A stretch of DNA of 64,000 bases from assembly GCA_963798915.1 (NCBI GenBank), contig CAWCVB010000014.1:3565-67564 (forward strand), read 5' to 3'. Below the pieces are notes generated by a model. The model was not told the DNA's origin. It did not search any database and worked only from the letters and a program-made list of their open reading frames with translations. Both the position numbers and the translations under genes were made by a program. The stretch is from an uncultured Gemmatimonadales bacterium (GTDB lineage Bacteria; Gemmatimonadota; Gemmatimonadetes; Gemmatimonadales; GWC2-71-9). Shown here one piece after another: positions 1 through 22,096 of the stretch (the first letter of the stretch is position 1; each line of letters begins with the position of its first letter).

Positions 1-901
1 CAATGGCGGCGCGGTGCACTTCACCGGTCTCGATCAGCTGGTCCATGACCTGCTTGACCAGATTGATGGGAATGGCAAAGCCGTAGCCGGAGTAGTACCC
101 GGTCTCGCTGGCGATGGCCGAGTTGATGCCGATGGCCTCACCCTGGACGTTGACCAGCGGCCCGCCCGAGTTGCCGGGATTGATCGCAGCGTCAGTCTGG
201 ATGAAGTCCGAGATGCTCAGGTTGGATTGATTGAGCCCCTGGAGCCGCCGGCCCTTGGCGCTGACGATGCCGCTGGTGACCGAGAAGGTCAGCTTGTCAC
301 CCAGCGGATTGCCGATGGCCAGGACCCACTCGCCCACCCGCTCATTGTCGCTGTTGCCCAGGGCAATGGGCTTGAGGTCCTTGGCGTCGATCTTGAGCAC
401 CGCCACGTCGGTGTTGGCGTCGGTGCCGACCACTTTGGCGACGAACTCGCGCTCATCCTGCAGCCGCACGGTCACCTTGTCGGCGCCGGCCACGACATGA
501 TTGTTCGTGACGATGTATCCGTCTGCTGAGACGATGAATCCCGAGCCGGTGCCCTGTTCCAGGCGCGGCCCGCTATCAGTCGGGAAGTTGAAGAAGCGCC
601 GGAATTCCCGCGGCACCTGCGGACCCCGGACCATTTCCGTGTGCTGCGACCTGACGTAGACAACACTGGGCACGACGGCCTGGGCCACCGCGGCAAACGC
701 GTTGCTCAGGTCGGCGAGCGGCCGGGCTTCCGGGATGGACGGCGGTGCGACCGGAGTAATCGCTCCGGCGCTCGCCTGCGCCAGCTCCTGGGCGGATCCC
801 CGGGTGGGAAGGTCGAGCAGCCCGGCAAACAGCAATCCGAGCGCAAAGGCGAGCGCCACCAGCCCGCCGAATTTCAGCCAGTTCTGTGATCGTACGGACA
901 T
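1..901 (-). CDS. HtrA/DegP-family periplasmic serine protease, N-terminal ~300 codons (3' end lies beyond the window start)
   Basis: Hand translation of the reverse strand from ATG at 901-899 gives MSVRSQNWLKFGGLVALAFALGLLFAG (signal/anchor). Trypsin-fold motifs follow: TNNHVV (His), DVAVLKI (Asp), GNSGGPLVN (Ser). It is missing from the ORF track because it runs off the edge. Confidence 0.9.
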   Translation of the reverse strand, partial: MSVRSQNWLKFGGLVALAFALGLLFAGLLDLPTRGSAQELAQASAGAITPVAPPSIPEARPLADLSNAFAAVAQAVVPSVVYVRSQHTEMVRGPQVPREFRRFFNFPTDSGPRLEQGTGSGFIVSADGYIVTNNHVVAGADKVTVRLQDEREFVAKVVGTDANTDVAVLKIDAKDLKPIALGNSDNERVGEWVLAIGNPLGDKLTFSVTSGIVSAKGRRLQGLNQSNLSISDFIQTDAAINPGNSGGPLVNVQGEAIGINSAIASETGYYSGYGFAIPINLVKQVMDQLIETGEVHRAAI

Positions 902-1008
902 GCGTCAGCCACCTGTTCCTGCGGCGAAGGTGAAAGGTCACGCCCCGCGAGGGGGACTTTCAATTTAATGGGGATGCGCGCCTGCCGTTTCGCGTCGCAT
1001 CCGTGCCA

Positions 1009-2673
1009 TTACGGAGTCGAGTCGTTGAGTCCCAGTACCCGGACGCCCTGATCGAACACGATATCCACCGGGATGCCGGCAGAGGTGAGCCGGTCCAGGT
1101 CGCCCTGAAGCCGGGGGCCAATCGCTCCATAGGTCTTCATGTACTGTTTGACGCCCTCGTAATCTCCGTTGCCCTGGAGGCGAAGGATCGTGGCCGAGAG
1201 CGAGTCGGTGGCGAGCCGCATGCGATCGGGATTGACCCGATAGGTTCCGCTCGCCGAATCGCGGGTAAACGCACCCAGCTCCTGGTAGAAGTTGAAGCGC
1301 GCGATGTTGGCCCGCCCGTGCGCGTCGGCACCCCCAAAGCGGACTGAGCGAAAGATGCTGGCCAGGAAAGTCACATAATTGTCAAGCAGCTTCGCGTCGG
1401 GCAGTTCGCCCATCGAATCAAGGGCGGTAATCATGTAGAGCCCCAGCACGTCCGCCTTGCCCTCTTCCAGCGCGCCGGCCTGTTCCTTCAGCGCCGCACG
1501 CACCGTGCCGGAATGATTGATCGTGTTCTTGATGCCGAGTCCATGCGCCACTTCGTGGAACATGGTGTTCTGGAAGAACGCGTTGAAGGAAATATTGCCC
1601 TGCTGGTCCGCGCTGATCAGCTTGTTGGCGATCGGCATCAGGATGCGGTCAAACTTGGCGCGCATCGCGTTCTTGAGCTGGAGCCTGCGCGTCCCCTTTT
1701 CCAGCTGGACCTGCTCGTCGTTCGGCAGGTTGATCGCGATGGTCTTGGCACCGGCATTGGCCTGCCCGGCGTAGAAGACGGCGTCGTACGCATTCAGGTC
1801 CGAATCGGTGCCCGGCTTCTCCCGGTGGTATTCTGGCTCGACCGGCAGGCCGCGTTGAAGCCGCGGCAGGAGTGCGGCGTAGCGCGCAAGGCGCCGGCTC
1901 CAGTCGCGATCCTTGAGGAGAACGTAGGCCTCATGGGCCGCCTTGTAGCCGAAGAGCGCGTCCTCATAGGTCTCGATCGGGCCGATGACGAGGTCAATCG
2001 CATTGTCCTTCATGTCGAGCCAGGCCATGTCACTGGCGCGATAGTCGTCGTGCTCGAGCGCGTCGGCCCGGAGCCGGAGGTAGCGCTTCAGCCCGGGATC
2101 CTGCGCCAGCTGGGCCGACTGCCGGAGCAGGGCCGCCGCTCGCGCGGTCGGCGCTGCATAGGCCTCATGGTAAGGCACCGTCTCGAGCCCGCCGCTGGAA
2201 TCCCGCCGGACCAGGGTGTAGAGGCCGCGGAGGGCGGCACCATGATCATTGGCGCGGCGTGCAGCGCTGTCGAATTCGGCCTTGGTCATGTCCGGCGGAT
2301 AGAAGCGCGCCCCGTCGGGCTTTGGCCCGACCCCCGGCATCAATGGACGATTCTCGTCGAGACGATTCCAGGGACCGTAGTTGATCTCGGTGAGGCGGCG
2401 GAGCGACGGATCCTGGACGGCGCCCAGGACGCTGTCAGCAGGCCCCGCCGTTTGCAGCCAGTAGATGCTGTCCATCTGCTCGGCCGCAGCGATGAGCAGG
2501 GGAATCATCTGGCGCTGGCTGTCGGAGAGCTGCGAAAGGTCGGCGGTGAGCGGCACCGTGTCGTACTGCGCGAGCAGGCTGTCCGAGGTGGTCATGGGCG
2601 CGGCGGCCTGCTTGTCGCTGGACGAGCAGGCCGCCGTCCCGGCGAGCAGCAGGGCGGCGGCGATACGGCGCAT
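1009..2673 (-). CDS. Lipoprotein zinc metallopeptidase, DPP III (M49)-like with pentapeptide HExxH motif
   Basis: 554-aa ORF. Lipobox LLLAGTAAC. Motifs FHEVAHGLG and downstream EEGKAD resemble the HExxH/EExKAD variant of family M49. Confidence 0.65.
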   Translation of the reverse strand: MRRIAAALLLAGTAACSSSDKQAAAPMTTSDSLLAQYDTVPLTADLSQLSDSQRQMIPLLIAAAEQMDSIYWLQTAGPADSVLGAVQDPSLRRLTEINYGPWNRLDENRPLMPGVGPKPDGARFYPPDMTKAEFDSAARRANDHGAALRGLYTLVRRDSSGGLETVPYHEAYAAPTARAAALLRQSAQLAQDPGLKRYLRLRADALEHDDYRASDMAWLDMKDNAIDLVIGPIETYEDALFGYKAAHEAYVLLKDRDWSRRLARYAALLPRLQRGLPVEPEYHREKPGTDSDLNAYDAVFYAGQANAGAKTIAINLPNDEQVQLEKGTRRLQLKNAMRAKFDRILMPIANKLISADQQGNISFNAFFQNTMFHEVAHGLGIKNTINHSGTVRAALKEQAGALEEGKADVLGLYMITALDSMGELPDAKLLDNYVTFLASIFRSVRFGGADAHGRANIARFNFYQELGAFTRDSASGTYRVNPDRMRLATDSLSATILRLQGNGDYEGVKQYMKTYGAIGPRLQGDLDRLTSAGIPVDIVFDQGVRVLGLNDSTP

Positions 2674-2700
2674 GGAGGCTCCGGGGCTGGGGCGGGTGCC

Positions 2701-2918
2701 AAGGGCGGTCTGAGACCGCCCCGATGATCTGACTCGCTCGGTTGAGGCTGGGGGCGGTCTGAGACCGCCCCGGTGATCTGACTCGCCCGGTTGAGGCTGG
2801 GGGCGGTCTGAGACCGCCCCGGTGATCTGACTCGCCCGGTTGAGGCTGGGGGCGGTCTGAGACCGCCCCGGTGATCTGACTCGCCCGGTTGAGGCTGGGG
2901 GCGGTCTGAGACCGCCCC
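2701..2918. repeat. 49-bp tandem repeat, about 4.4 copies, each carrying the hairpin GGGGCGGTC-TGA-GACCGCCCC
   Basis: The GCGGTC motif recurs at 2705, 2754, 2803, 2852 and 2901, an exact 49-bp period. The leftmost copy is slightly degenerate. The last hairpin abuts the dnaK stop codon (2919-2921). Confidence 0.95.
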
Positions 2919-4955
<2,037 letters not shown>

Positions 4956-5010
4956 TTTGCAGGCAACCACCATACCGTATATATCTGCCACTTTGGCAGG
5001 GAAATGGCAG

Positions 5011-5322
5011 TCAGGGCCATGCCTGTCGCTGGTTCCAGACCTCGCGCGACGCCGTTGCCCTGCCACCGAAGCGCCGCGTGAACTCTTCCCGGAGGCCGGG
5101 CGCATGCTCGGCGAGATATCGCTCCAGGTTGGCACGAGAGGCCATCAGGTATCGGGTTCGAAAGGTGGTGGCGTCCAGCGCGGCGAAATCGGCGGCCGTG
5201 AAGAGGCCTGTGGCCAGCACGTCGGGGATGTGTTCCTGGCGCATCCAGTCCGCAAACTCGTCGCCGGTCTCCGGATCGTGGAGGCGGACGGTGACTTCGT
5301 AGGAGACGAGGTTGGCGGGCAT
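5011..5322 (-). CDS. Small conserved protein, DUF4286-like
   Basis: Internal ATG at 5322 gives 103 aa: MPANLVSYEVTVRL...EFADWMRQEHIPDVLATGLF. This pattern is typical of DUF4286. The upstream part of the listed ORF is repeat-derived. Confidence 0.6.
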   Translation of the reverse strand: MPANLVSYEVTVRLHDPETGDEFADWMRQEHIPDVLATGLFTAADFAALDATTFRTRYLMASRANLERYLAEHAPGLREEFTRRFGGRATASREVWNQRQAWP

Positions 5323-5336
5323 GGATGGATTGTAAT

Positions 5337-5488
5337 GGGTCGCGGGTCGCGGGTCGCGGGTCCCTGGTCGCGGGGAACGCTGGGCTGTCTCTCCGTCTCG
5401 CCGTCTCGCCGCCGCGCAGTCGCGCCGTCGAGCCGCCCATCCAGCCCATCTAGCCCATCCAGCCCGTCCCGCCCATCTTGCACCCATT
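5337..5488. repeat. Composite short-tandem-repeat block: (GGGTCGC)x3, (CGTCTCGC)x2, (CCCATCCAG)-type nonamers x5
   Basis: Read directly from the sequence. It fills nearly the whole divergent spacer between the DUF4286-like and M61 genes. Confidence 0.9.
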
Positions 5489-5508
5489 CATCCCGAACGG
5501 AGCCACCG

Positions 5509-7335
5509 ATGCTGTTGCTGTTGCTCGCCACGATGCAGGCGGACACGGTTCGCTACGACATCCGCTTTCCCAGTGCGGTCCATCACGAAGCCGAGGTTAC
5601 GGTCACCTTTCCGGCCACCAGCGCGGATACGCTTGCCGTCTGGATGAGCCGCTCGTCTCCCGGCCGCTACGCGCTGCACGAGTTCGCCAAGAATGTCTAT
5701 TCGGTGCGAGCGGAGGACCTGACGGGGGAAGCGCTCTCCGTGGTGCAGCCGGATCCCTATCACTGGCTGGTCGTGTCCGGGCGTGGCCCCGTGGTCTTTC
5801 ACTACACCCTGTTCGGGGACCGGGCCGACGGAACCTACAGCGCGATCGATCCGTCGCATGCCCACCTCAACATGCCGGCGACCTTCGCCTTTGCGCCGAC
5901 GCTTGCGTCGGCACCCATCGCGGCCCGGTTCAACCCGCCACCGGGCAGCCACTGGCGGATTGCGACCCAGCTCCTGCCAGGTGGCGACAGCACGCGCTAC
6001 CTCGCCCCCGACCTGCAGTACTTCATGGACAGCCCCACTGAACTGTCCGATTTCACCCTTCGCTCCTGGACGGTGCCCAACCCGGCCGGCGGCAGCTACA
6101 CCATGCGCCTGGCGCTCCACCACCAGGGAACCGACGCCGAGGCCGATGCGTATGTCGAGCGCATCAAGAGGGTCGTCGGGGAGGAAATCGGGGTTTTTGG
6201 TGAGCCGGCTCCCTATGACGGCGGGACGTATACGTTCATCGCGGACTACCTGCCATGGGCGTCCGGTGACGGCATGGAGCACCGCAATTCCACGATTATT
6301 TCCAGCAGCAGCAGCCTGGCGCAGAATCCCATGGGGCTGCTGAGCACGATGTCGCACGAATTCTTCCACTCCTGGAACATGGAACGGATCCGTTCGGCCC
6401 AGATCGAGCCGTTCGACCTGCTTCACTCCGACCCGAGCGACGCTCTCTGGTTCGGCGAAGGGTTCACCAACTATTTCGACGCGCTGTTCATTCGACGGGC
6501 GGGCCTGTCGGACGACGAGACGTACCTGGGCCGACTTGCGGGGCAGGTGGATGCGCTGGTGCACACCCCGGCGCGGCGCTATCGCACCCCGATGGGCGCC
6601 AGTCTGGAAGCACCCTTCGTCGACGCCGCCACCTCGATCGATCCCAACAATTTCGGCAACACCTTCCTCTCGTACTACACCTGGGGCGCCGCCTTGGCGA
6701 CCGGGCTCGACCTCACGCTGCGAGGCCGCTATCCCGGCAAGTCGCTCGACGGTTTCATGCGCCTCATGTGGCGCCGGTTCGGCCGCAATGAGCGGCCCTT
6801 CGTGATCAGGCAACCCTACACGGTGGACGATATCCAGCGTACCCTCGGCGAATACGTGGGCGACCCGGCGTTCGCGGCCGACTTCTTCCGCCGCTATGTG
6901 CACGGCAGCGACGCCCCGGATTTTGCGGTGCTGCTGGCGCAGGCCGGTGTCCTGCTGCGACAGGCCCATCCGAACGAGGCCTGGCTGGGCCAGCCACGCA
7001 TGCGGTATGACAGCGCCGGAGCCGAAGTCATGAGCTCGTCCATGCTCGGCACTCCGCTGTACCAGGCCGGCGTCGATCGTGGCGACCGCATTCGCAGCAT
7101 CGGCGGCGTTGCGATTACGTCGGACAGTGCCTGGGATGCAGCCGGAGCTGCCCACCGGCCTGGCGACACCGTGCCGATCGTGTTCGACCAGCTGGGCGTT
7201 ACCCGGCACGGCCACATCACCTTCGCGGCAGATCCCCGGCTCGAGGCGGTGACGTTCGAATCGGTGGGCCAGACGCTGACTGATGCCGAACGGGCATTCC
7301 GGGCCAGCTGGCTGGGGAGCAAGGCGGGGAAATGA
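5509..7335 (+). CDS. M61 family glycyl aminopeptidase with C-terminal PDZ-like domain
   Basis: HEFFHSWNMERIR (HExxH) with a downstream WFGEGFTNY motif, and a C-terminal GDRIRSIGGV PDZ-like segment. Start set at ATG 5509. The longer listed ORF (4942) runs antisense through the neighbouring gene and the repeats. Confidence 0.8.
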   Translation: MLLLLLATMQADTVRYDIRFPSAVHHEAEVTVTFPATSADTLAVWMSRSSPGRYALHEFAKNVYSVRAEDLTGEALSVVQPDPYHWLVVSGRGPVVFHYTLFGDRADGTYSAIDPSHAHLNMPATFAFAPTLASAPIAARFNPPPGSHWRIATQLLPGGDSTRYLAPDLQYFMDSPTELSDFTLRSWTVPNPAGGSYTMRLALHHQGTDAEADAYVERIKRVVGEEIGVFGEPAPYDGGTYTFIADYLPWASGDGMEHRNSTIISSSSSLAQNPMGLLSTMSHEFFHSWNMERIRSAQIEPFDLLHSDPSDALWFGEGFTNYFDALFIRRAGLSDDETYLGRLAGQVDALVHTPARRYRTPMGASLEAPFVDAATSIDPNNFGNTFLSYYTWGAALATGLDLTLRGRYPGKSLDGFMRLMWRRFGRNERPFVIRQPYTVDDIQRTLGEYVGDPAFAADFFRRYVHGSDAPDFAVLLAQAGVLLRQAHPNEAWLGQPRMRYDSAGAEVMSSSMLGTPLYQAGVDRGDRIRSIGGVAITSDSAWDAAGAAHRPGDTVPIVFDQLGVTRHGHITFAADPRLEAVTFESVGQTLTDAERAFRASWLGSKAGK

Positions 7336-7347
7336 TGGTCGTCGCTC

Positions 7348-7369
7348 GTCGAGGGTCGAGGGTCGAGCG
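7348..7369. repeat. (GGGTCGA)x3 heptamer array
   Basis: gtcgagggtcgagggtcgagcg lies between the M61 stop and the S10 start. Confidence 0.8.
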
Positions 7370-7420
7370 AATCGGGCCGATCGTCGATTCACTGTTCGCC
7401 TGTGATCAAGGAGCCTGGGC

Positions 7421-8974
7421 ATGAACCAGAAATACCGTATGGTCGGCTGGCTGTTCCTGCTCGGCCTGTCGCCTTCTGTTCTCTTGGCCCAGCGTGAGTC
7501 CCAAAGCGCAAAGCCGGATTCTGCTGCAGCGCATACGACCGCCGCCGATTCGCTCAAGCTGGCAGAGATCGCCAGCCGGCCCGCCGTCATCACGCATCAC
7601 AGCATGCAGCTGAACGGGAAGCGCCTCGACTACACAGCGACGACGGGCATGCTGGCGATCCGGGATGAGAAGACTGGTGCCTCCGAGGGGTACATGTTCT
7701 TCGTGGCATACACCCAGGATGGCGCGCCGGAGCGCGGCAAGCGGCCCATCACCTTTGTGTTCAATGGTGGGCCGGGGTCCTCCACGGTGTGGCTGCACAT
7801 GGGGGCGTTCGGGCCCAGGCGAGTCAAGCTGCTGCCGAGCGGCGAGGCACCCCCGCCGCCCTACTCCTATGAAGACAATCCCTACACCCTGCTGGACCAG
7901 AGCGACCTGGTTTTTCTCGACCCGGTCGGCACCGGCTACAGCAGGCCGGCCAATCCGAAGCTCGGATCGAAGTTCTGGGGGGTCAACGAGGACATTGCGT
8001 CGGTTGGTGAATTCATCCGATCGTATCTCACGACCTACGAACGGTGGGCCTCACCCAAGTTCCTCGCCGGTGAGAGCTACGGCACCACGCGTGCCGCTGG
8101 CCTGACGGGATACCTCGCGGATCAGGGCATCGCCTTCAACGGCATCACCCTGATCTCGACGATTCTCGACTTCGGTCTCGATGAGGGTGACAACGCGGCC
8201 ATCTATTACCTCCCGTCCTACGCCGCGATTGCGTGGTACCATAAGCGACTCCCGCCGGATCTGCAGGCGATGACATTGGCGCAGGTCACCGACAGGGCCG
8301 AGCGCTGGGCGGGAACCTCGTACCGGCTCGCCCTGGCCAGAGGCTACGAGCTGAACGACGCGGAGCGGCGGGTCGTGGTGGATACGCTGGCCCGATTTAC
8401 CGGACTGTCCCCGACCATCGTGGACCAGAACAACCTGCGGATTTCGCTGGGGCTGTTTGACACCGAACTGCTGCGGGAGCAACGGTTGACGGTGGGCCGT
8501 CTCGACGGTCGCTTCACCGCCTTCAGCATGAACAACGCCTCACAGCGGCCGGCGTTTGACCCCAGCATGTCGAATATTCGTCTCTCCTACACTCCCGTGC
8601 TGAATGATTACGTGCGGCGCGAGCTCAACTATCACGACGATATGCGGTACTACATCCTGGGCGGCGGGGTGGATCGTTGGAGCCCGCAGCACGAAGGCGG
8701 CCCCACGGACGTGACCCCGTCCCTGGAAGCCGCCTATGCCCAGAACCCGCACATGAAACTCTTCGTGGCGATGGGCTATTACGACACGGCGACGCCCTAC
8801 TATGCGGTGGAATACACCTTGTCGCATCTGGCGATCGGGCCCCAGGCACGCAGCAACATTACGACTGCCTACTACGCTGCCGGCCACATGATGTACATCG
8901 ATGACGCTTCCATGAAACAATTCCGGGCGGACCTGGGGACCTGGATGGGTGGGGCGCTGAGCGCCCAGCGCTGA
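7421..8974 (+). CDS. Secreted serine carboxypeptidase, peptidase S10 family
   Basis: Signal peptide (LFLLGLSPSVLLAQ). Motifs NGGPGSSTVWLHMG and the catalytic-serine motif AGESYGT. Confidence 0.8.
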   Translation: MNQKYRMVGWLFLLGLSPSVLLAQRESQSAKPDSAAAHTTAADSLKLAEIASRPAVITHHSMQLNGKRLDYTATTGMLAIRDEKTGASEGYMFFVAYTQDGAPERGKRPITFVFNGGPGSSTVWLHMGAFGPRRVKLLPSGEAPPPPYSYEDNPYTLLDQSDLVFLDPVGTGYSRPANPKLGSKFWGVNEDIASVGEFIRSYLTTYERWASPKFLAGESYGTTRAAGLTGYLADQGIAFNGITLISTILDFGLDEGDNAAIYYLPSYAAIAWYHKRLPPDLQAMTLAQVTDRAERWAGTSYRLALARGYELNDAERRVVVDTLARFTGLSPTIVDQNNLRISLGLFDTELLREQRLTVGRLDGRFTAFSMNNASQRPAFDPSMSNIRLSYTPVLNDYVRRELNYHDDMRYYILGGGVDRWSPQHEGGPTDVTPSLEAAYAQNPHMKLFVAMGYYDTATPYYAVEYTLSHLAIGPQARSNITTAYYAAGHMMYIDDASMKQFRADLGTWMGGALSAQR

Positions 8975-9063
8975 ACCGCCGTAACGTCATCGCACGGGCC
9001 AGCCGCCGGCGGGATCGCCCTCCAGGCGGCCCGCCGACAGCGGACCACCCGTGATGCGCTGAC

Positions 9064-10896
9064 TCATTTCACGATGATGTCTTGCGACCATGTCGGCGGG
9101 AGGCCCGCGATGCCGGCCGTGAGCCGGTAGGTGCCGGTGGCCGCCGGCGCAAATGCGAAGTCGCTCGTTTCACCCACGCTGACGACAGCCCTGGCGGGCA
9201 CGTTGACCGCGAGGGCCGGTGGCAGGTCGGCACCGTCCTTTGCGAGCGCCTGCCAGGTCACCGGTGTGCCCTCGCGCTGGAGCGTATAGGCGACCGGGCC
9301 GGCCAGTCCCATGTTGATGAACCGGAAGCGATGACTCGTGCCCCGGACCAGATGGAGCGGCAGCGAGCTGACCGAGTCGCCGTTGATCAGCAGGTAGGGC
9401 GGAATATGTGGAGTGCCGTGCGGGCTATCCCAGCCTGCGATGAATGCATGATCCGTCGCCGGGTCATAGCGCATGCCCGGTTCCAGAACGATCATCGGTC
9501 CATAGAGTCCCGAACTGAGCTGGTCGATGTCGTTGAGGTGCGTATGATAGATGAATGTGCCGGCCCGGGGCCCCAGCAGCCGGACGGCCAGGGACTGCCC
9601 TGGCGGGATCACGGGCGCCACCCGTGAGCTGGTCCCACTCCACCCGCTCACACCGTCCGAATAACTATCGTCCAGTTCCAGCCCATGCCAGTGGACCGAG
9701 GTCGCTTCTGACAATCGGTTGATCACGGTGACCGTCATCGGCACACCGCGTGTCAGGATCAGCATGCCGCTCGTCCTGGGGAGCGTGTCGAGCTTCTGCA
9801 TCCGGCTACCGGACCCCACGGTAAACTCTCGTGTGTGCAGGGCGTGTCCGCGCTGGGGCCCTTCGTCCACGAACACGATCGCGCTGTCGGTGGCGACGGG
9901 GAGGTTCGCGAGGGCTCGTGGCCGCGCCGAGATGCCCAGCACCAGGCCGACCATGTGGTCACTCATGCCGCCCGCATGCGCCGGCCATTCGAGCGCATTC
10001 TCCGGCGCAATGTGAAAGGCGAGATGGCAATGGAAGAGCCAATTCCCGGGGTTGGGTGCGGCCCATGTCATGCTCATGGTGCTGAACGGCCGCATCTGCC
10101 GGGTCACAATCAACGGCTGCCGGTCGCTGGCAATGGCCGTATCGGCCGCCAGCCCGCCGCTGGCACCAACCCTGAAGTAGAAGCCATGCATGTGCATCGG
10201 GTGGGCGCGGTCACTGGCATTGACGATACGCCATTGCACCGTATCTCCCACAACGGTCTCAATCCGCTCAGTCCACGGCCAGGTACGACCGTTGATCGCG
10301 AGCACATTGCGGCCGCCGAGGGCCGTCGTATCCGCCTGGCTCCAGATATTCATGACGAACACCCGGTCCGCCTGGTGGTTGGCCGCCGTGTCCACGATGA
10401 ATGCACCCGCCAGCTGCTGTTGCTCCGTGCTGTCGGGATTCTCGACGCCGGGCGTCGCGCCGTAGATGTAGGTGCCAGGCGCTCCCGCACTGAACGTGAA
10501 GGTCCGCGTGGACCCAGGCGGCACCAGCGCTGGCGTCAGGCTGCCGAGCGGATGCCCGGCAAGTCCGACCACCTGAAGCGTGGAGTCGGGGAGCGTGTTT
10601 CGGACGCTCACCTGGAGTACGGTACCCGGTGGGACCCGGATGAGCGGCGCGGGCACCGCCGGCGCCCGGCCCTCCTCGGCGAAGACTGGTACGTCCACGA
10701 ACGACCCGCCAGCCCGCTCGGGATACCAGCGCGCCATCGTGACGACCAGCCGGAGCGAGAGCGTGTCGCCGTGAAGCTGGCCCGCCGGCGCGCGGTTGTC
10801 ATTTGGCTGCACCACCGGCAGGGCGTCGTGAGGGGAAGGAGCAGCGAGCGGAAGCACACCGATGGCCAGGAGGAAACGAAGGCGCAGGCGTGACAT
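9064..10896 (-). CDS. Multicopper oxidase
   Basis: Copper-ligand motifs HWHGLE, HTHLND, HPMHMHG, HCHLAFH. Signal peptide from the internal ATG at 10896 (MSRLRLRFLLAIGVLPLAA). Confidence 0.85.
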   Translation of the reverse strand: MSRLRLRFLLAIGVLPLAAPSPHDALPVVQPNDNRAPAGQLHGDTLSLRLVVTMARWYPERAGGSFVDVPVFAEEGRAPAVPAPLIRVPPGTVLQVSVRNTLPDSTLQVVGLAGHPLGSLTPALVPPGSTRTFTFSAGAPGTYIYGATPGVENPDSTEQQQLAGAFIVDTAANHQADRVFVMNIWSQADTTALGGRNVLAINGRTWPWTERIETVVGDTVQWRIVNASDRAHPMHMHGFYFRVGASGGLAADTAIASDRQPLIVTRQMRPFSTMSMTWAAPNPGNWLFHCHLAFHIAPENALEWPAHAGGMSDHMVGLVLGISARPRALANLPVATDSAIVFVDEGPQRGHALHTREFTVGSGSRMQKLDTLPRTSGMLILTRGVPMTVTVINRLSEATSVHWHGLELDDSYSDGVSGWSGTSSRVAPVIPPGQSLAVRLLGPRAGTFIYHTHLNDIDQLSSGLYGPMIVLEPGMRYDPATDHAFIAGWDSPHGTPHIPPYLLINGDSVSSLPLHLVRGTSHRFRFINMGLAGPVAYTLQREGTPVTWQALAKDGADLPPALAVNVPARAVVSVGETSDFAFAPAATGTYRLTAGIAGLPPTWSQDIIVK

Positions 10897-10958
10897 GGGA
10901 GCCCTCGGGCAAGGCCCGATGTGGGTGGCAACGCGCCCGCTTGGGCGCAGGGTAACAC

Positions 10959-11984
10959 TCAGTTCAAGGCAATGGTTTCGGCAGCGGCATCCAGCTCGGC
11001 GAGACATGCACGCTTGGTGTCCACGTCCATCTGGGCGACTTCAAATCCGTTCCGGGCCAGGTCGGCAAGCCCGGCCAGTGACACGCCCATCGCGGAGGCC
11101 GCCAGGTATTCATCCGTGAGCGAGTTGCCAAAGCAAAACGGATCATCGGTGCTGAGGGTACAGCGTACCCCGGCAGCGAGCAGTCGAGGCAGGGGATGCT
11201 CGGTGAGCGAGGGCACCACGCCAAGTTTCAGGTTGCTGATCGGACAGGTATCGCAGGTGACATCGCGCTGCAGGAGGAGATCCACCACTGCCGGATCCTC
11301 GATAGCGCGGATGCCATGCTGCACCCGACGAACTCCCAGGTGCTCGATCACCTCTCGAACGCGCTCGGCGCCGGTCAACTCTCCGGCATGCGCCTTGGTG
11401 ACCTTGCCGGCGTCGGCCACACGTCGCCAGACTGGCGCAGTCCACGGCTCGAGCGGCCAGCTTTCGACGCCATGCAGGTCCACGCCGGCGAGGTGCTCCC
11501 AGCTGTGGAGCGAGTCAATCACCGGCGCCAGTTCCGGCGTGTAGTCAATCCGGCGCATGGCGGCAAACACGCGCACCGTCATGCCCGTCGGCGCGGCTGA
11601 ACGAATGGCATCGAGAATGTCGCGACCATCAGTGTCGATCAGCTGCGTGATGGGCAGATGGAAGCTGGTCTCGACGTAGCGCACATTCTGCTCGGCGAGC
11701 GCCTGGAAAACCACCTGCGCGGCCTCATGGTATCGCTGGGCCGACCTGAACCAGATGGCAGCATTTTCCAGGAGTCCGGCCTCAAAGGTAGCAAAGTCGG
11801 GGTAGCGATGCTCCGTCGCCCACCAGGCCGGTGGCCCGTCCGGAAACCGGTCTGGCGCCACCGAACGCAGAAGCTCCAGCGGGAGCGCGCCTTCCATGTG
11901 GAGGTGCGTCTCGGTCTTGGGGAGACGGAGAACGAACTCGCGGAGATCCGCGGCGCTTTGTGGTAGCATATTGGACATGATCAC
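10959..11984 (-). CDS. Adenosine/adenine deaminase-like metal-dependent hydrolase
   Basis: THLHMEG (HxH), HAGE and STDDP motifs of the adenosine deaminase superfamily. It is the second ADA-type gene in the window. Confidence 0.75.
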
Positions 11985-12033
11985 CGCCCTAAGTTACGGA
12001 ACGGCCTCAGGGCCCGCCAGCGGAGGACTCAGC

Positions 12034-13299
12034 ATGCGGAAATTCCGCCCATTCATCTGCCTGCTCGCGATCACGCTCATGACCGCCCCGCTCGGGGCGC
12101 AGTCTGCCACCCTGCTGAAGCCCGCTGCGGTGTATGACGGAATGAGTGATGGCCTGCACCCCGGCTGGGCGGTCCTGGTCGCCGGGGACTCGATCGCACA
12201 GGTGGGGCCGGCAAGCGAGCTGGCCGCGGGCGCTGCTCAGGTGGTGGAGCTTCCTGGCCTCACGCTGATGCCGGGAATGATTGAGGGGCATTCGCACCTC
12301 CTGTTGCACCCGTACAACGAGGCACCGTGGGACGTGCAGGTCCTCTACGAACCGCTGGCGCTGCGTATCGCCCGCGCCACCGTGGCGGCGAAGCGGACGC
12401 TGGATGCAGGCATCACCACGACCCGTGACCTGGGCACCGAGGGCGCGGGCTACGCCGATGTCGGTCTCCGCGATGCCGTGCGCCAAGGCATCATTCCCGG
12501 CCCGCGCATCCTGGCCACCACGCGAGCCATCGTGGTAACCGGCAGTTATGGGCCGCGCGGAGCGCCGGAGCGCGACATGGCCTTCGGGGCACAGGAAGCG
12601 GACGGCGTAGACGGCCTCACCCGCGTCGTGCGCGAGCAGATCGGCAAGGGGGCGGACTGGGTGAAGCTGTACGGAGACTATGGCTGGGGTCCCGGTGGCA
12701 CGGTGCAGCCCACGTTCACGGAGGCAGAACTGAAGCTTGCCGTGGAGGTGGCCGCAAGCTCCGGCCGCTTCGTTGTGGTCCACTCCAGCAGTGCAGAGGG
12801 CATGACGCGAGCGGCCCGGGCGGGGGCGCGGACCATCGAGCATGGCGACCACGGCACGGCGGAAGCCTTCAAGCTGATGGCCGAACGGCACGTGGGTTAC
12901 TGCCCCACGCTGGCCGCCACCGAAGCGGTGGCATCCTACCGGGGATGGAAGAAGGGCACCGGGCCCGCGCCCGGCTCGGTCCAGGAGAAGCACCGGAGCT
13001 TCAAGGCGGCGCTGGCCGCCGGCGTGGCCATCTGTTTCGGCGGGGATGTGGGCGTTTTCTCCCATGGGGACAACGTGCGCGAAGCCGAGCTGATGGTGGA
13101 GTACGGCATGACTCCTGCCGCCGCGCTGCACGCGACGACCGCTGGAAACGCCGACATATTCGGGCTGGCCGACCGCGGCCGCATCAAGGCGGGCCTGCTG
13201 GCCGACCTCGTCGCCGTCGAGGGCGACCCGACCCGGGACATCAGCGCCCTCAGGCAGGTCAGGTTTGTGATGCAGGGCGGGCGGGTGGAGCGACGATAG
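12034..13299 (+). CDS. Periplasmic amidohydrolase-family enzyme
   Basis: Start at ATG 12034 after a GGAGGA SD. Signal peptide [15 protein letters not shown]. Motifs GHSHLL (HxH), VKLYGD, VVHSS, IEHGDH, FGGDVG. Confidence 0.75.
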
Positions 13300-13468
13300 G
13301 GCAGGGCGGGCGTGACGGGCAGGGCGGGCGTGACGGGCGGGAACTCAGGCACGCTCTGTCATTGCTTCGACGCGCCTGCGGCGCGTCTCGCAATGACAGT
13401 ACGGGTTTAGCTTCGCTCGCCAACTCGCCAACTCGCCAACTCGCCAACTCGCCAACTCGCCAATTCGC
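13299..13468. repeat. Composite repeat block: (GGGCAGGGCGGGCGTGAC)x2, long hairpin, (CTCGCCAA)x6.5
   Basis: 18-mers at 13299 and 13317. Hairpin CTGTCATTGC...GCAATGACAG at 13356-13399. Octamer array at 13416-13468. Confidence 0.9.
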
Positions 13469-13508
13469 CGTCTGGCCCTCCAGCCGCCGAGGCCCCTATC
13501 TTCGATCA

Positions 13509-14249
13509 ATGTTCCCGTACCACGACGAGAACCCGACCTTGGCGACGCCGGTGGCGACGATCGGCATCATCGCCGCCAACATCGTGGTCTGGATCCTGGT
13601 GCAGGGGATGGGCTCGGAGCCGGCGCTGGCCCGCTCGGTCTGTGAACTCGGGCTGGTCCCGGGCGACTTCCTCGGCCGGCTGCCCGCTGGCTACGCCGTA
13701 CCGATGGGCCGAGGCGTGGCCTGCATCCTGTCGGGCGACCGGGCCTGGTACACACCCGTCACGTCGATGTTTCTCCATGGCGGCTGGCTGCACCTCATCG
13801 GCAACATGTGGTTCCTCTGGCTGTTCGGCAACAATGTCGAAGATTCGATGGGCCGATTCCGCTACGTAGCCTTCTACCTGCTCTGCGGGTTGGCGGCCGC
13901 GTTCATGCAGCTCTTCCTGAACCCATCCAGCGGGCTGCCGATGGTGGGCGCCTCGGGGGCCATCAGCGGCGTCATGGGCGCTTATGTGCTGCTGTATCCT
14001 CGGGTGCGGGTGCATGTGCTTCTGGTGCTGGTGATCTTCATTACTCGCATCCAGCTGCCCGCCTGGGTCATGCTCGGCTACTGGTTCCTGCTGCAACTGC
14101 TCGGGGGCACCGCGTCGCTGGCAGGGCAGCAGGGCGGCGTGGCATTCTGGGCCCACGTGGGCGGGTTCGCGGCTGGCGCCGCGCTGGTCACGCTCTTCAA
14201 GGACCGGGCGCTCGTGGCCCAGCACCGCGCTTTGGCGCGCACCATGTGA
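13509..14249 (+). CDS. Rhomboid-family intramembrane serine protease
   Basis: Motifs HGGWLHLIGNMWFLWLFG, GASGAISG (catalytic Ser) and HVGGFAAG (His). Start at ATG 13509. The upstream in-frame part is repeat sequence. Confidence 0.9.
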   Translation: MFPYHDENPTLATPVATIGIIAANIVVWILVQGMGSEPALARSVCELGLVPGDFLGRLPAGYAVPMGRGVACILSGDRAWYTPVTSMFLHGGWLHLIGNMWFLWLFGNNVEDSMGRFRYVAFYLLCGLAAAFMQLFLNPSSGLPMVGASGAISGVMGAYVLLYPRVRVHVLLVLVIFITRIQLPAWVMLGYWFLLQLLGGTASLAGQQGGVAFWAHVGGFAAGAALVTLFKDRALVAQHRALARTM

Positions 14250-14263
14250 TATTACGGACATTC

Positions 14264-15265
14264 ATGACACACCTGCCGGCCGGCGCCCCCGCGCGTCCCG
14301 ATCCCCATCTCCCGGTGCACCCGCGGAATCCGGGCATGCCCCTGGAGCTCGAGTGGGTGCAGGATGTGCGCATCAACCGCAGCGCGGTGGAGCGGCGCGC
14401 CGCATCATTGGGCACCCGGCGGACGGTCAAGAAACAGTGGCAGGCCGCCTGGCTGCTCCGCGCAGTCACCCTGATGGACCTGACCACGCTTTCGGGTGAC
14501 GACACCCCGGGCCGGGTCCGTCGGCTCTGTGCCAAGGGACGTGCACCGGTCCGGGTCGACCTGCTGGACATGCTGGGCGCCACGCAGCTGCCCATCCGGG
14601 TGGCCGCCATCTGTGTCTATCACGCCATGGTCGAGACCGCCGTCGAGGCACTGGCCGGGTCCGGGATTCCTGTCGCGGCGGTATCCACCGGGTTTCCGGC
14701 TGGCCTTTCGCCCTTCAGCCAGCGCCTGGAGGAGATTGGCGCCTCGGTCGAGGCAGGGGCGGAAGAAATCGATGTCGTCATTACCCGCGCGCATGTGCTG
14801 ACCGGCAACTGGTCCGCGCTCTATGATGAGGTGCGCGCCTTTCGCGCAGCCTGCGGCGATGCCCATATCAAGACGATTCTCGCCACCGGCGAACTCGGTA
14901 CCCTCCGGAATGTCGCGCGCGCGAGCCTGGTGTGCATGATGGCAGGCGCCGATTTCATCAAGACCAGCACGGGCAAGGAGGGCACCAATGCGACGCTGCC
15001 GGTCGGCCTGGTCATGGTGCGGCAGATCCGCGAATATCTGGATCGGACGGGCTACCGGGTCGGATTCAAGCCGGCCGGTGGTATCCGCAGTGCCAAGGAT
15101 TCACTCGTCTGGCTTGGCATGATGAAGGAGGAACTGGGCGACGCCTGGCTCCGGCCCGAGCTCTTCCGCTTTGGCGCCAGCAGCCTGCTGACCGATATCG
15201 AGCGGCAGCTGGAATATTTCGCCACCGGCCGCTACTCGGCCGATTACCGCCACCCACTGGGCTGA
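14264..15265 (+). CDS. deoC: Deoxyribose-phosphate aldolase (long form)
   Basis: LMDLTTLSGDDT, EIDVVI and FIKTSTGK (Schiff-base Lys) motifs. Confidence 0.85.
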   Translation: MTHLPAGAPARPDPHLPVHPRNPGMPLELEWVQDVRINRSAVERRAASLGTRRTVKKQWQAAWLLRAVTLMDLTTLSGDDTPGRVRRLCAKGRAPVRVDLLDMLGATQLPIRVAAICVYHAMVETAVEALAGSGIPVAAVSTGFPAGLSPFSQRLEEIGASVEAGAEEIDVVITRAHVLTGNWSALYDEVRAFRAACGDAHIKTILATGELGTLRNVARASLVCMMAGADFIKTSTGKEGTNATLPVGLVMVRQIREYLDRTGYRVGFKPAGGIRSAKDSLVWLGMMKEELGDAWLRPELFRFGASSLLTDIERQLEYFATGRYSADYRHPLG

Positions 15266-15267
15266 GC

Positions 15268-17688
15268 ATGTCATCCATCGGCGAAATTTTCGAAACCATG
15301 GAATACGGGCCGGCTCCGGAAGCGGCAGCGCCCGCGCTGGAATGGATCGCGGCGCATGGGAAGGGCCTCGGCCATTTCATCAACGGCAAGTGGACTGCCG
15401 CCGGCGAATCGTTCGCGTCGGTCAACCCGGCCACGGGCAAGCCGCTTGCCCGCGTGGCCCAGGGGAGCACCAGGGACGTGAATGCGGCCGTGCGGGCCGC
15501 GCGTGCCGCACAACCGGCCTGGGAAGGGCTGGGTGGCCATGGACGCGCCCGGCACCTCTATGCGCTGGCGCGCCAGATCCAGAAGCAGGCTCGACTCTTT
15601 GCCGTGATGGAATCGCTCGACAACGGCAAGCCGATCCGCGAATCGCGCGATATCGACATTCCCCTGGTGGCCCGACACTTCTACCACCATGCCGGCTGGG
15701 CGCAGCTCATGGAACGCGAGCTGCCTGATTCGGCTCCGGTGGGAGTGGTGGGCCAGATCATACCGTGGAATTTCCCGCTGCTGATGCTTGCGTGGAAGAT
15801 TGCGCCAGCGCTCGCCATGGGGAACACGGTGGTGCTCAAGCCGGCGGAGTTCACGTCGCTCACCGCCCTGCTGTTCGCTGAAATTGCCTCGCAGGCCGGG
15901 CTGCCCCCCGGGGTGCTCAACATCGTCACGGGCGATGGCCGGACCGGCGAGGCGCTCGTGGCGCATAAGGACGTGGACAAGATCGCCTTCACCGGTTCAA
16001 CCGAAGTCGGGCGGCTGATCCGGGTTGCCACGGCGGGTAGCGGCAAGCGGCTCTCGCTCGAACTTGGCGGCAAGAGTCCCTTCATTGTCTTCGACGACGC
16101 CGACCTGGACAGTGTGGTGGAGGGCGTCGTGGACGCCATCTGGTTCAACCAGGGGCAGGTCTGCTGCGCCGGCTCGCGCATTCTGGTCCAGGAAGGCGTT
16201 GCCGCGCGGCTGGTGCAGAAGCTGCGCGCGCGCATGGAGATGCTTCGGGTGGGCGACCCGCTCGACAAGGCAGTGGACATCGGCGCCATCATTGCGCCGG
16301 TGCAACTGGAGAAGATCACCCAGCTGGTGCAGCAGGGGCGCGACGAGGGGGCCACCGTGTGGCAACCATCGTGGAGCTGCCCGACCGAAGGCTATTTCTT
16401 TCCGCCCACGCTGTTCACCGATGTGTCGCCTTCGGCCACCGTGGCGCAGGTCGAGATCTTCGGCCCTGTGGTGGTGCTGATGACGTTCCGCACCCCAGAT
16501 GAAGCCGTTGAACTGGCTAACAACACCCGGTACGGACTTGCGGCGAGCGTCTGGACTGAAAGCGTCAACCTTGCTCTCGACATCGCGCCCCGGCTCGCTG
16601 CCGGTACCGTGTGGGTCAACTGCACCAACGTGTTTGACGCGGCGGCGGGATTTGGCGGCTACCGCGAGAGCGGATTCGGGCGCGAAGGCGGACGCGAGGG
16701 GCTCATGGAGTACGTGCAGCCGCGGTGGGAGGTGGCAGGCGGGAAGTCGGGAAGACGGGACGTCAGACGGGAAGACGGGAAGGCGGGAAGACGAGAGAGC
16801 GTCAAAGGCGCGCGCATCCCGACCTCCCGTCTTCCCGCCTTCCCGCCCATTGACCGCACCGCCAAGCTCTATATCGGTGGCAAGCAGGTCCGGGCCGATG
16901 GCGGGTACAGCGATCTGGTGCGCGGTGCCGGGGGGCAGCCCGCGGGTGAAGTGGCACGCGGGAATCGCAAGGACATCCGCAATGCCGTTGAAGCGGCGCG
17001 AAAGGCCCGGGGCTGGACCACGGCCACGGCCCACAACCGGGCACAGGTGCTGTACTATGTCGCCGAGAACCTGTGGGAGCGCACTGACGAGTTTGCGGGC
17101 CGGCTGGCCCTGGCGTCCGGGGACACGATAGCGGCGCGCGCTGAAGTCGAGCTGAGCCTCCAACGTCTCTACACCTACGCCGCATGGGCCGACAAGTGGG
17201 ACGGCCATGTTCACCAGACTCCCTACCGCAACGTCACTCTGGCCATGCCCGAGGCCCTGGGGGTGGTCGGCATCAGCTGCGCGGACGACATGCCGCTGCT
17301 TGGCTTCATCTCGACTGTCTCACCCGCCATCGCCATGGGCAACCGGGTCATCGTCCTTCCCTCCGAGGTATGGCCGCTCGCGGCCACCGACCTGTACCAG
17401 GTGCTCGAAACCTCGGACGTACCGGCTGGTGTCGTGAACATCATCACCGGTCCGCACGCGGAATTGCGCCCGGTGCTGGCGGCGCACGACGACGTTGACG
17501 GGATGTGGCACTTCGGCTCGCGTGAGGGTGCCGAGGAAGTGGAGCGGCTCTCGGCTGGCAACATGAAGCGCACGTGGGTGGGGTACGGCCGGACTCGCGA
17601 CTGGCGCGACCCGGTCCAGGGTGAGGGCGTCGAGTTCCTCGAACACGCCACCCAGATCAAGAATATCTGGGTGCCCTACGGCGAATAA
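15268..17688 (+). CDS. Aldehyde dehydrogenase fused in frame to a second, truncated ALDH-like module
   Basis: Module 1 (to about 16730) has IPWNFP, LELGGKSP and NQGQVCCAGSR. Module 2 (about 16850 to the end) begins IDRTAKLYIGGK, is ALDH-like, and lacks the ELGG and Cys motifs. There is no stop and no in-frame ATG/GTG/TTG between the modules. Confidence 0.8.
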   Translation: MSSIGEIFETMEYGPAPEAAAPALEWIAAHGKGLGHFINGKWTAAGESFASVNPATGKPLARVAQGSTRDVNAAVRAARAAQPAWEGLGGHGRARHLYALARQIQKQARLFAVMESLDNGKPIRESRDIDIPLVARHFYHHAGWAQLMERELPDSAPVGVVGQIIPWNFPLLMLAWKIAPALAMGNTVVLKPAEFTSLTALLFAEIASQAGLPPGVLNIVTGDGRTGEALVAHKDVDKIAFTGSTEVGRLIRVATAGSGKRLSLELGGKSPFIVFDDADLDSVVEGVVDAIWFNQGQVCCAGSRILVQEGVAARLVQKLRARMEMLRVGDPLDKAVDIGAIIAPVQLEKITQLVQQGRDEGATVWQPSWSCPTEGYFFPPTLFTDVSPSATVAQVEIFGPVVVLMTFRTPDEAVELANNTRYGLAASVWTESVNLALDIAPRLAAGTVWVNCTNVFDAAAGFGGYRESGFGREGGREGLMEYVQPRWEVAGGKSGRRDVRREDGKAGRRESVKGARIPTSRLPAFPPIDRTAKLYIGGKQVRADGGYSDLVRGAGGQPAGEVARGNRKDIRNAVEAARKARGWTTATAHNRAQVLYYVAENLWERTDEFAGRLALASGDTIAARAEVELSLQRLYTYAAWADKWDGHVHQTPYRNVTLAMPEALGVVGISCADDMPLLGFISTVSPAIAMGNRVIVLPSEVWPLAATDLYQVLETSDVPAGVVNIITGPHAELRPVLAAHDDVDGMWHFGSREGAEEVERLSAGNMKRTWVGYGRTRDWRDPVQGEGVEFLEHATQIKNIWVPYGE
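16741..16847. repeat. Octamer-array inverted repeat (GGGAAGNC)n embedded in the ALDH linker
   Basis: gggaagtc gggaagac ... gggaagac gggaaggc gggaagac, then inverted cgtcttcccgccttcccg. A perfect 18-bp stem pairs 16776-16793 with 16828-16845. Confidence 0.9.
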
Positions 17689-17838: not shown

Positions 17839-17848
17839 CGGCCCGCGG

Positions 17849-17876: not shown

Positions 17877-17882
17877 CCGCCC

Positions 17883-22023: not shown

Positions 22024-22038
22024 GGATGTGTAACGAAT

Positions 22039-22089: not shown

Positions 22090-22096
22090 GCTCGCC

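Follow-up and report, generated by a model that had tools for sequence, protein, structure and literature searches.

What are the short tandem repeats that occupy the intergenic DNA of an uncultured Gemmatimonadales bacterium, and do they share an architecture that would betray their origin or role? The question arises from a 64,000-nucleotide stretch of contig CAWCVB010000014.1 (GenBank assembly GCA_963798915.1, positions 3,565 to 67,564 of the forward strand; hereafter the window), and specifically from an interval flagged in its divergent spacer 5323-5508, which separates a DUF4286 gene (5011-5322, minus strand) from an M61 peptidase gene (5509-7335, plus strand). The original prediction saw here one instance of a genome-wide style of intergenic 7-, 8- and 9-nt arrays organised as inverted blocks. 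We find that this architecture exists: neighbouring arrays of related units face each other as inverted pairs of defined polarity, placed at gene ends, and it is the flagged spacer itself that departs from the pattern.

Tandem arrays were located with Tandem Repeats Finder (TRF) and their positions were checked against the window sequence; gene boundaries were set by frame analysis of the GC content of third codon positions (GC3) together with Pfam. At periods of 6-11 nt, at least 2.7 copies and a score of at least 40, the window holds 13 arrays, against 0.11±0.34 (maximum 2) in 100 dinucleotide-preserving shuffles, an excess of about 100-fold. These are head-to-tail repeats of 5-11-nt units, longer than chance in this window, and as such belong to the class delineated by Mrázek and colleagues. 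TRF and the sequence itself confirm every array listed in the original prediction, including (GGGTCAC)2...(GTGACCC)3 at 22039-22090. Its statement that they fill nearly all spacers of more than about 60 bp is an overstatement: among 17 spacers measuring some 70 bp or more, only 11 contain tandem arrays, which take up 8-88% of their length; the other six, one of them 335 bp long, are array-free. Spacers that contain a gene 3' end carry arrays in 10 of 13 cases and divergent spacers in one of four, this one being the flagged spacer. Every array of the window is intergenic except the pair at 16740/16817.

The regularities of these elements become apparent in a larger sample. The window was compared with 160 loci (designated by L numbers), which were gathered with the M61 protein against species-representative genomes and metagenomes and include many Gemmatimonadota, with Sphingomonas, Pontibacter, Terriglobia and other lineages as controls. 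The closest M61 matches, at 80% protein identity, are those of L001-L004 and, from the metagenome scan, L081, and they place the window in uncultured Gemmatimonadales; look-ups of DnaK, M61 and L19 by exact sequence gave no record. Throughout this sample the unit length is narrowly confined, with 62 arrays of period 7, 45 of period 8 and 35 of period 9, against 7, 4 and 2 of periods 6, 10 and 11 nt. Two arrays of related units lying no more than 300 bp apart are inverted with respect to each other in 28 cases and direct in one, so that the predicted inverted pairing is indeed non-random, and the pairs fold into long stems of -30 to -175 kcal/mol. Of the 28 pairs, 27 combine a purine/G-rich 5' arm with a pyrimidine/C-rich 3' arm, whichever strand is read. 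The same purine-then-pyrimidine order is kept by adjacent arrays whose units are not complementary (16 versus 2). As a control we used ordinary, non-tandem perfect hairpins with a stem of at least 10 from the same Gemmatimonadota loci, which are unpolarised (32:30). The polarity is therefore specific to the tandem-array elements; the ratio rules out that they inherited it from a general hairpin type of the phylum.

The polarity is also anchored to genes. Read in the direction in which they are purine-rich, 28 of 44 arrays start between -4 and +10 nt from a coding stop codon, against only 4 of 18 in the pyrimidine-rich reading. The flanks of 23 pairs could be classified by a frame-aware six-frame test, after a check by Pfam and synteny, as co-directional (14), convergent (6) or divergent (3), and a gene reads into the element at 20 of the 23. 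Coding DNA is largely avoided: non-coding arrays outnumber coding ones 51 to 1 at period 7, 34 to 6 at period 8 and, at the in-frame period 9, 23 to 7.

Is this style peculiar to the window? At periods of 7-9 nt and at least 3 copies, arrays are present in 28 of 52 Gemmatimonadota loci, where their density is 9.9 per 100 kb, as against 2.2 per 100 kb in other phyla and none in 151 kb of GC-matched non-Gemmatimonadota sequence. The window has 17 per 100 kb and the short contigs of its closest relatives 57 per 100 kb, the density being high in the nearest five or six. It follows that the style is lineage-wide but patchy, and not restricted to the window; the original prediction was right in placing such intergenic arrays outside the cyanobacteria. 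The few non-Gemmatimonadota loci with 7-9-nt arrays include one from Pontibacter virosus (L078), with the near-complementary 9-mers ATCAGGATT/AATCCTGTA, and one from Blastocatellia (L045), so the arrays extend into other phyla at low density.

The dynamics of the units can be followed in L006 and L011, which share about 20 kb of synteny at 85-88% DNA identity and in which seven orthologous spacers were compared. The flanks are kept, and often the hairpin apex as well (e.g. GGCGGT...TTCCGC). One spacer is identical in the two loci; four of the seven have exchanged the unit in each of its copies, and these include three paired elements where the exchange affects both arms (GCGAAGG versus GCGACGG, ACGAGAT versus CGATAGA, ATACGAG versus GGCGACA and GACGGAG versus GAGGGCG). 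Such a pattern is concerted evolution, within an array as well as between its arms. Every genome also favours certain unit families, which turn up again at loci whose centres are unrelated, as GGCGACA does at 4-5 sites in L011. In the window clade the preferred families are GGGTCNN, found in the window at 5337, 7353, 22039/22056 and 54123-54299, and GCCCATCYN, found at 5436 and 47572-47636; the predicted recurrence of related units at distant loci is thus confirmed. Given such unrelated centres, a common unit does not make two elements copies of a single mobile sequence.

How does the flagged spacer relate to this pattern? It was predicted to consist of inverted blocks, and proves to hold three direct, non-complementary arrays (Table 1), the 5387 array not being complementary to the 5337 array, with a fold no better than that of shuffles (z=+0.38). 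At the position next to DUF4286, L001-L005 and L081 have another unit in every species, the units of the seven species being GGGTCGC, CGGCTNGA, GTCGCAG, GTCAAGC or CTCGGCGG; in L001, L004 and L081 the array at this position has a complementary partner and forms a hairpin. The orthologous spacer upstream of M61 contains a hairpin, of differing unit, in L001, L004, L006, L011 and L081. The 80 nt adjoining M61 are conserved in register across the seven species, with a mean column identity of 86% against 77-86% DNA identity for the M61 genes themselves. This segment comprises 4-5 GCCCATCYN units followed by CCATTCCCATCCCGAACGGAG, and its array always ends 31-33 nt from the ATG. This part is a constrained cis-element of M61 (promoter or leader) and not a hypervariable repeat.

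On the opposite side of the spacer, a conserved TACAAT stands 7-8 nt 5' of the DUF4286 ATG (on the sense strand), without a Shine-Dalgarno sequence, in the window (5323-5336) and in L001, L002 and L081. The DUF4286 mRNA may be leaderless, in which case the -35/upstream promoter region would be taken up by the variable heptamer array. Towards M61, the last unit of the 3' arm merges in L006 (9886-9930), L011 (9909-9945) and L007 (~2260-2275) into a conserved TCGTATAYT, which lies about 30 nt before the M61 ATG and contains a -10-like box (TATAYT). The repeat unit beside it is similar to the neighbouring unique sequence, as though the array had grown out of it.

Do the arrays constitute a new family? 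The original prediction recognised no described one, but Rehm et al. 2015 (PLoS One, PMC4692102) reported convergent inverted heptamer pairs in Xanthomonas, at 70-75 per genome, in a study of intergenic GGGAATC arrays of Xanthomonas and GGGGA(C/T)T arrays of Nostoc/Anabaena, inverted pairs being few in Anabaena. These arrays are 89-93% intergenic, G-rich on the coding strand 0-50 bp past the stop codon (overlap included) and, immediately 5' of start codons, on the non-coding strand, rarer between divergent genes, and not linked to insertion sequences (IS) or phase-variable genes; related species keep the array sites, while lengths and sequences differ (PMC4692102). Intergenic bias, convergent inverted pairing, strand polarity and stop-codon position were all tested in our sample, and all recur there; scarcity between divergent genes and the retention of sites under changing sequence are shared as well. 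Unlike Xanthomonas and Nostoc, where one dominant unit was chosen for its capacity to form G-quadruplexes (G4), the Gemmatimonadota have many units of 7, 8 and 9 nt per genome, and most lineages use units incapable of G4; neither GGGAATC nor GGGGAYT occurs in tandem in the window. Wholesale replacement of the unit on both arms between close species was not reported there, and the phylum differs. The arrays hence belong to a repeat type known from Xanthomonas and Nostoc, of which they are a multi-unit form in a new lineage; what is new is the phylum, the multiplicity of 7-9-nt units per genome, the prevalence of non-G4 units, the both-arm unit replacement and the array-specific polarity.

The broader class is that of the long simple-sequence repeats of Mrázek, Guo & Shah 2007 (PNAS), which, as summarised in PMC4679880 and PMC4692102, have 5-11-nt units with heptamers the commonest, are proposed to be generated by polymerase slippage, are excluded from coding DNA when the unit is not a multiple of three, and abound sporadically across phyla, in Burkholderia, cyanobacteria, Actinobacteria and Xanthomonas. 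Our arrays resemble this class, as these summaries present it, in the abundance of heptamers and in the near confinement of 7- and 8-nt units to non-coding DNA; the same summaries do not address inverted pairing, polarity or stop-codon abutment, and do not list Gemmatimonadota as repeat-rich. A different arrangement is that of the TAACTGA direct repeats of Beggiatoaceae, cyanobacteria and Bacteroidetes (MacGregor 2015, PMC4679880), of which 169 sets are direct and one indirect, ending 1 nt 5' of start codons. Those too are intergenic heptamer arrays oriented to a downstream start, with a pyrimidine-poor/-rich strand rule discussed for the 5' untranslated region; they have, however, a single unit, and ours are mostly inverted pairs abutting stop codons. 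The literature yielded nothing relevant on repeats of Gemmatimonadota or on later functional work with GGGAATC arrays.

The arrays were likened in the original prediction to the short tandemly repeated repetitive (STRR) sequences of heterocystous cyanobacteria, which Mazel and colleagues in 1990 reportedly found as tandem heptamers dispersed in intergenic DNA, with several families per genome. The likeness holds as an analogy, in that tandem intergenic heptamers of several unit families per genome are present here as well. It goes no further, because no tandem CCCCAGT, TTGGTCA or CAACAGT (STRR1-3) was found, and the phylum is Gemmatimonadota, not cyanobacteria. The repetitive extragenic palindromes (REP) and bacterial interspersed mosaic elements (BIME) of enterobacteria are imperfect, roughly 35-bp palindromes situated between cistrons and in 3' regions, which stabilise upstream mRNA (malE-malF) and are mobilised by REP-associated tyrosine transposases (RAYT). 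Our elements likewise form hairpins past stop codons and after binding-protein genes of ATP-binding cassette (ABC) transporters, here at pstS-pstC. By this comparison REP/BIME probably offer the closest model of the pairs' possible mode of action, with the difference that they are palindromes of conserved sequence associated with RAYT, whereas the present elements are tandem arrays with a locus-specific unit and centre.

How would such elements arise, and what would retain them? We favour, at a probability of roughly 45%, the explanation that the arrays are slippage-generated long simple-sequence repeats kept as gene-end stem-loops with a terminator or stabiliser role; our confidence in the descriptive part given above is much higher than in this functional part. 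Arrays of 7-9-nt units would arise and turn over by replication slippage in the non-coding DNA of a subset of Gemmatimonadota. The typical element is a convergent pair, with a G/purine-rich array starting at the stop codon of the gene reading in, or a few bases from it, and a complementary C/pyrimidine-rich array further into the spacer; when single-stranded, the pair would adopt a long, nearly perfect stem-loop. By our inference the stem-loop has been preserved as a marker of 3' ends and of junctions between cistrons, in a genome presumably without hairpin-plus-U-tract terminators. Its action might be that of a terminator or attenuator independent of a U-tract, combined with protection of 3' ends, by analogy with the REP/BIME hairpins of E. 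coli (e.g. at pstS-pstC). Units would be homogenised within an arm by slippage, and between arms by selection for pairing or by intra-strand template switching. Where this coupling is lost, the arms would drift to non-complementary arrays that keep the purine-then-pyrimidine order. On this view the flagged spacer would be a decayed or atypical array pair within a divergent promoter region, its GCCCATCYN array having turned into a conserved leader or promoter element of M61.

The favoured function fits with the gene that reads in at 20 of 23 pairs and with the element that fills the pstS-pstC spacer, whose fold of -43.2 kcal/mol (z=-4.70) was equalled by none of 200 shuffles. It also fits with the lack of enrichment of hairpins followed by a T-run (5 found in window positions 1-20000, 8.8±3.3 expected). 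The array pairs have no T-runs themselves and are thus not canonical intrinsic terminators. Several observations weigh against it. The G·U versus A·C asymmetry of 15 oriented elements gives 28 sense and 41 antisense G·U pairs, and as the transcribed strand shows no preference for G·U, nothing shows selection at the RNA level. By eye, unit variants are not mirrored between the arms in L006 and L011. Since ordinary hairpins lack the polarity, the arrays are more than expanded terminator hairpins drawn at random, nor does the hairpin model account for the polarity. Three pairs and the flagged spacer lie between divergent genes, where no transcript end is expected, and many arrays are unpaired.

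The main rival, which we hold to be less likely, is that the arrays are a non-adaptive by-product of a lineage-specific property of replication or repair that makes 7-9-nt duplications frequent and confers no function. Arrays would then grow wherever selection is weak, bounded by the stop codon on one side and by the promoter or ribosome-binding site on the other, and would acquire their partners through template switching; the polarity would stem from a polar generator, for which R-loops of G-rich, ribosome-free RNA just past the stop codon are a candidate. Rapid unit turnover at conserved sites is what such a process would produce, as are G·U pairs without strand bias, variants unmirrored between arms, and arrays that abut stop codons exactly. 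The confinement of polarity to arrays, to the exclusion of ordinary hairpins, agrees with it too, and so do the patchy spread within the phylum and the array pair tolerated inside an aldehyde dehydrogenase (ALDH) reading frame. The narrow 7-9-nt period suggests an enzymatic footprint, as Mrázek proposed according to PMC4679880. What this account handles poorly is the persistence of a hairpin at the orthologous spacer in species with only 55-64% protein identity, its sequence wholly replaced. Without selection, moreover, the 28:1 excess of inverted pairs needs an efficient dedicated pathway. Nor does it sit well with the GCCCATCYN units, whose in-register conservation equals or exceeds that of the neighbouring gene, or with the depletion of 9-mers from coding DNA although they are in frame.

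A further reading, which we consider improbable, would make the array pairs the footprint of a polar, gene-end-coupled repeat generator that serves as a self-renewing source of terminator or insulator structures. Expansion would start where the ribosome releases the mRNA, for instance at R-loops of naked, G-rich RNA, intra-strand template switching would then supply the partner arm, hairpins would be continually built and rebuilt de novo at gene boundaries, and genome-specific unit families would be homogenised across loci. If true, this would explain both the polarity shared by Gemmatimonadota, Xanthomonas and Nostoc and the absence of polarity in ordinary hairpins.

There is even less to recommend the arrays as binding sites for a trans-acting factor, be it Rho, loading at C-rich arrays as rut sites that are masked or exposed through pairing with the G-rich arm, or a cold-shock-domain protein on pyrimidine-rich leaders, such that the unit families co-evolve with the factor. 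Its footprint would be about 7-9 nt of single strand; a period of 7-9 nt is not a helical repeat, which makes binding to duplex DNA unlikely. The genome-typical unit families at loci with unrelated centres would suit such a factor, and so would the arrays that are C-rich on the sense strand 5' of M61, DUF445, ffh and rhomboid and the GCCCATCYN element, with its conserved core, variable last positions and fixed distance to the ATG; a heptamer footprint has been raised for CspB (PMC4679880). Many units with periods of 7, 8 and 9 nt in one genome, and their exchange between species of 85-88% identity, are hard to reconcile with a single specificity, and no candidate factor was identified.

G-quadruplex elements, in which at least four G-tracts on the non-template strand upstream or the coding strand downstream modulate transcription or translation, were proposed for the GGGAATC and GGGGAYT arrays of Xanthomonas and Nostoc (PMC4692102). 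The window clade would lend itself to this role, with GGG/CCC in 16 of 34 units and a G3N1-7 x4 motif in 12 arrays, including the (GGGTCGC)5 of the flagged spacer, and the strand rule is that of Rehm 2015 (PMC4692102). Arrays capable of G4 number 0 of 19 in L006/L011 and 3 of 40 in other Gemmatimonadota, counts that largely rule it out as a general explanation. Since units such as ACGAGAT, CGATAGA, GGCGACA and AAAGAGAG share the architecture, polarity and position, G4 capability is not the common denominator, and we judge a G4 role very unlikely. Mobile or RAYT-dependent palindromes (like REP/BIME or MITEs, short for miniature inverted-repeat transposable elements) and phase-variation contingency loci are the least credible of all: the elements are intergenic, palindromic and recurrent with related units, and some pairs enclose MITE-like palindromes, but no transposase or RAYT-like domain was found by Pfam in the 30 window open reading frames (ORFs) scanned, against the REP/BIME analogy as originally drawn, same-unit elements differ in centre and length, the neighbours are housekeeping genes (dnaK, ffh, pstS, trmD, peptidases) and not surface or contingency genes, most arrays lie past stop codons and not in promoters or 5' coding parts, and in the study of Rehm 2015, too, neither IS elements nor phase-variable gene classes were linked to the arrays (PMC4692102).

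The elements of the window are collected in Table 1. Besides the flagged spacer, they occupy the spacers dnaK/DUF4286, M61/S10 peptidase, amidohydrolase/rhomboid, pstS/pstC and ABC-2/DUF445, a convergent spacer beside DUF445 and the region upstream of ffh.

Table 1. Repeat elements in the window (coordinates of the 64,000-nucleotide stretch)
Position	Strand	Element	Basis	Location
2703-2918	-	larger-unit array, 49-bp unit x4.4, 98% identical	TRF	fills the interval from dnaK stop to M49 peptidase start
4872-4956	-	long imperfect hairpin of degenerate heptamers	sequence, RNA fold	between DUF4286 stop and dnaK start (dnaK leader)
5337-5374	+	(GGGTCGC)x5.4, G-rich on plus strand	TRF	ends 14 nt from DUF4286 start; variable part of flagged spacer
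5387-5435	+	degenerate 8-mers (GTCTCGCC/CCGTCGCG)x5.4, C-rich	TRF	centre of flagged spacer
5435-5477	+	(GCCCATCCA)x4.8, the 9-mer (GCCCATCYN), C-rich on sense strand	TRF	ends 31 nt 5' of M61 ATG (5509)
7348-7367	+	(GGTCGAG)x2.9, G-rich	TRF	starts 13 nt past M61 stop (7335); no complementary partner
13299-13341	+	(GGGCAGGGCGGGCGTGAC)x2.2, 18-mer, G-rich	TRF, Pfam	begins at last base of amidohydrolase stop codon
13416-13469	+	(CTCGCCAA)x6.8, C-rich	TRF	upstream of rhomboid gene; not complementary to 13299 array
16740-16793, 16817-16847	+	inverted 8-mer pair, (CGGGAAGA)x6.2 facing (TCCCGCCT)x3.9	TRF	
22036-22092	-	heptamer hairpin (GGTCACG)4...(GTGACCC)2 on sense strand	Pfam (PBP_like_2, BPD_transp_1, PhoU)	fills pstS-pstC spacer of pstSCAB-phoU operon
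45968-45995	+	(GAGCCGCC)x3.5, perfect copies	TRF	abuts DUF445 stop (gene 45998-47560, minus), convergent spacer
47570-47797	-	inverted 9-mer pair	TRF, regular expressions, fold energies	between ABC-2 permease and DUF445
54118-54299	+	C-rich heptamers (CGACCCA/CGCCCCA)n and palindrome GGGCGGAGCCATGGCTCCGCCC	TRF	upstream of true ffh start (~54350)
57193-57322	+	larger-unit array, 52-bp unit x2.5, ending in palindrome GGGGCGGCCCGCGGGCCGCCC	TRF, Pfam (tRNA_m1G_MT)	fills spacer between trmD and rplS

The sense strand is the C-rich one in every array 5' of M61, DUF445, ffh, rhomboid and DUF4286. The ORFs of ffh, rhomboid and M61 extend upstream through arrays and are inflated by them, as the original prediction had noticed. 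The rhomboid domain forms the downstream part of ORF 12945-14249 (Pfam), and the true start of Ffh is marked in the ORF translation by MFDELSQKL... At 54118-54299 and at 13299-13469, arrays do flank palindromes as predicted; they are not reverse complements of each other. The palindrome GGGCGGAGCCATGGCTCCGCCC is itself duplicated as a 99-bp unit x1.8, and a MITE-like palindrome (13345-13405) sits between the 13299 and 13416 arrays. In the spacer 3' of M61, relatives have other units, such as the inverted pair (CGGACGAGG)4/(GTCCGTCCT)5.6 of L004. In the 9-mer pair at 47570-47797, the plus strand reads (GGATGGGC-type)x8 at 47570-47638 facing (GCCCATCCA)x2.3 at 47775-47795. On the sense (minus) strand the permease stop is followed by (TGGATGGGC)2.3, a 135-nt centre with MITE-like hairpins and (GCCCATCYY)8, the last ending 10 nt before the DUF445 ATG.

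MITE-like palindromes stand in the centres of array pairs in the window (13345-13405, 47655-47750) and in L003 (1944-2050), L005 (5400-5480) and L081 (2500-2660), with ends that resemble GTCATTGC...GCAATGAC or GTCAYYCCCGCGAAAGCGGG...CCCGCATGCGCGGGAATGAC. Their position suggests that the loops of array hairpins may serve as insertion sites for small mobile palindromes.

The element in the dnaK leader folds at -68.2 kcal/mol (z=-4.34), with none of 200 shuffles as good, and could be a heat-shock regulatory structure; no CIRCE-like inverted repeat was seen in the leader region. Upstream of it, a small hairpin just past the DUF4286 stop is accompanied by a TATATAC box. Each 49-bp unit of the array after dnaK holds a hairpin, GGGGCGGTCTCAGACCGCCCC, and about five tandem stem-loops are thereby stacked behind the gene. 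In the 52-bp array between trmD and rplS, the palindrome GGGGCGGCCCGCGGG has half its length in each copy and is complete only in the last one; the palindrome of this element recurs as GGGTAGGGGCGGCCCGCGGGCCGCCCCTACCC in the convergent ALDH/phoU spacer (17857-17888). A block of lower GC content (51326-53996; 0.59 versus 0.66) contains the 335-bp array-free spacer and four consecutive ORFs without a Pfam match (51770-52240, 52213-52950, 52961-53377 and 53433-53996), and may be acquired DNA. No tRNA, no transfer-messenger RNA and no Rfam match at gathering score was found anywhere in the window.

The pair at 16740-16847, predicted to be a spacer array, lies inside an uninterrupted ORF of 918 aa (14932-17688), where it encodes an in-frame linker of about 36 aa between a complete ALDH domain and a partial second one (Pfam Aldedh on both sides); the GC3 frame is unchanged across it and there is no stop codon. 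In L006 and L011 the two ALDH halves are separate genes, the first ending in EYL-TGA, with an array-bearing spacer between them. In the window, either the stop codon has been lost, giving a gene fusion through the repeat element, or the sequence contains an error. In L006 (13771-15709), which comes from a long-read metagenome-assembled genome, the ALDH gene is split over two overlapping frames, both with Aldedh matches, which is probably an assembly frameshift error; ORF-based classification in such genomes needs care.

What do these arrays mean for the biology of the group? On the practical side, they inflate ORF calls in high-GC genomes (ffh, rhomboid, M61) and can fuse neighbouring genes, as in the ALDH pair. 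Cyanobacteria have been known to carry heptamer arrays between genes since 1990, Xanthomonas and others since 2007-2015, and the only specific functional proposal of the earlier papers is G-quadruplex formation. The Gemmatimonadota are a third, unrelated phylum with the same architecture, polarity and stop-codon abutment, achieved with mostly non-G4 units, which removes G4 as the common explanation and moves the focus to the hairpin or its generator. The material thus narrows the hypotheses on array function, the mechanism remaining an inferred one, and it contains two natural experiments: species of about 86% identity whose conserved sites have come to carry another unit on both arms, and polarised array hairpins side by side with unpolarised ordinary hairpins in the same genomes.

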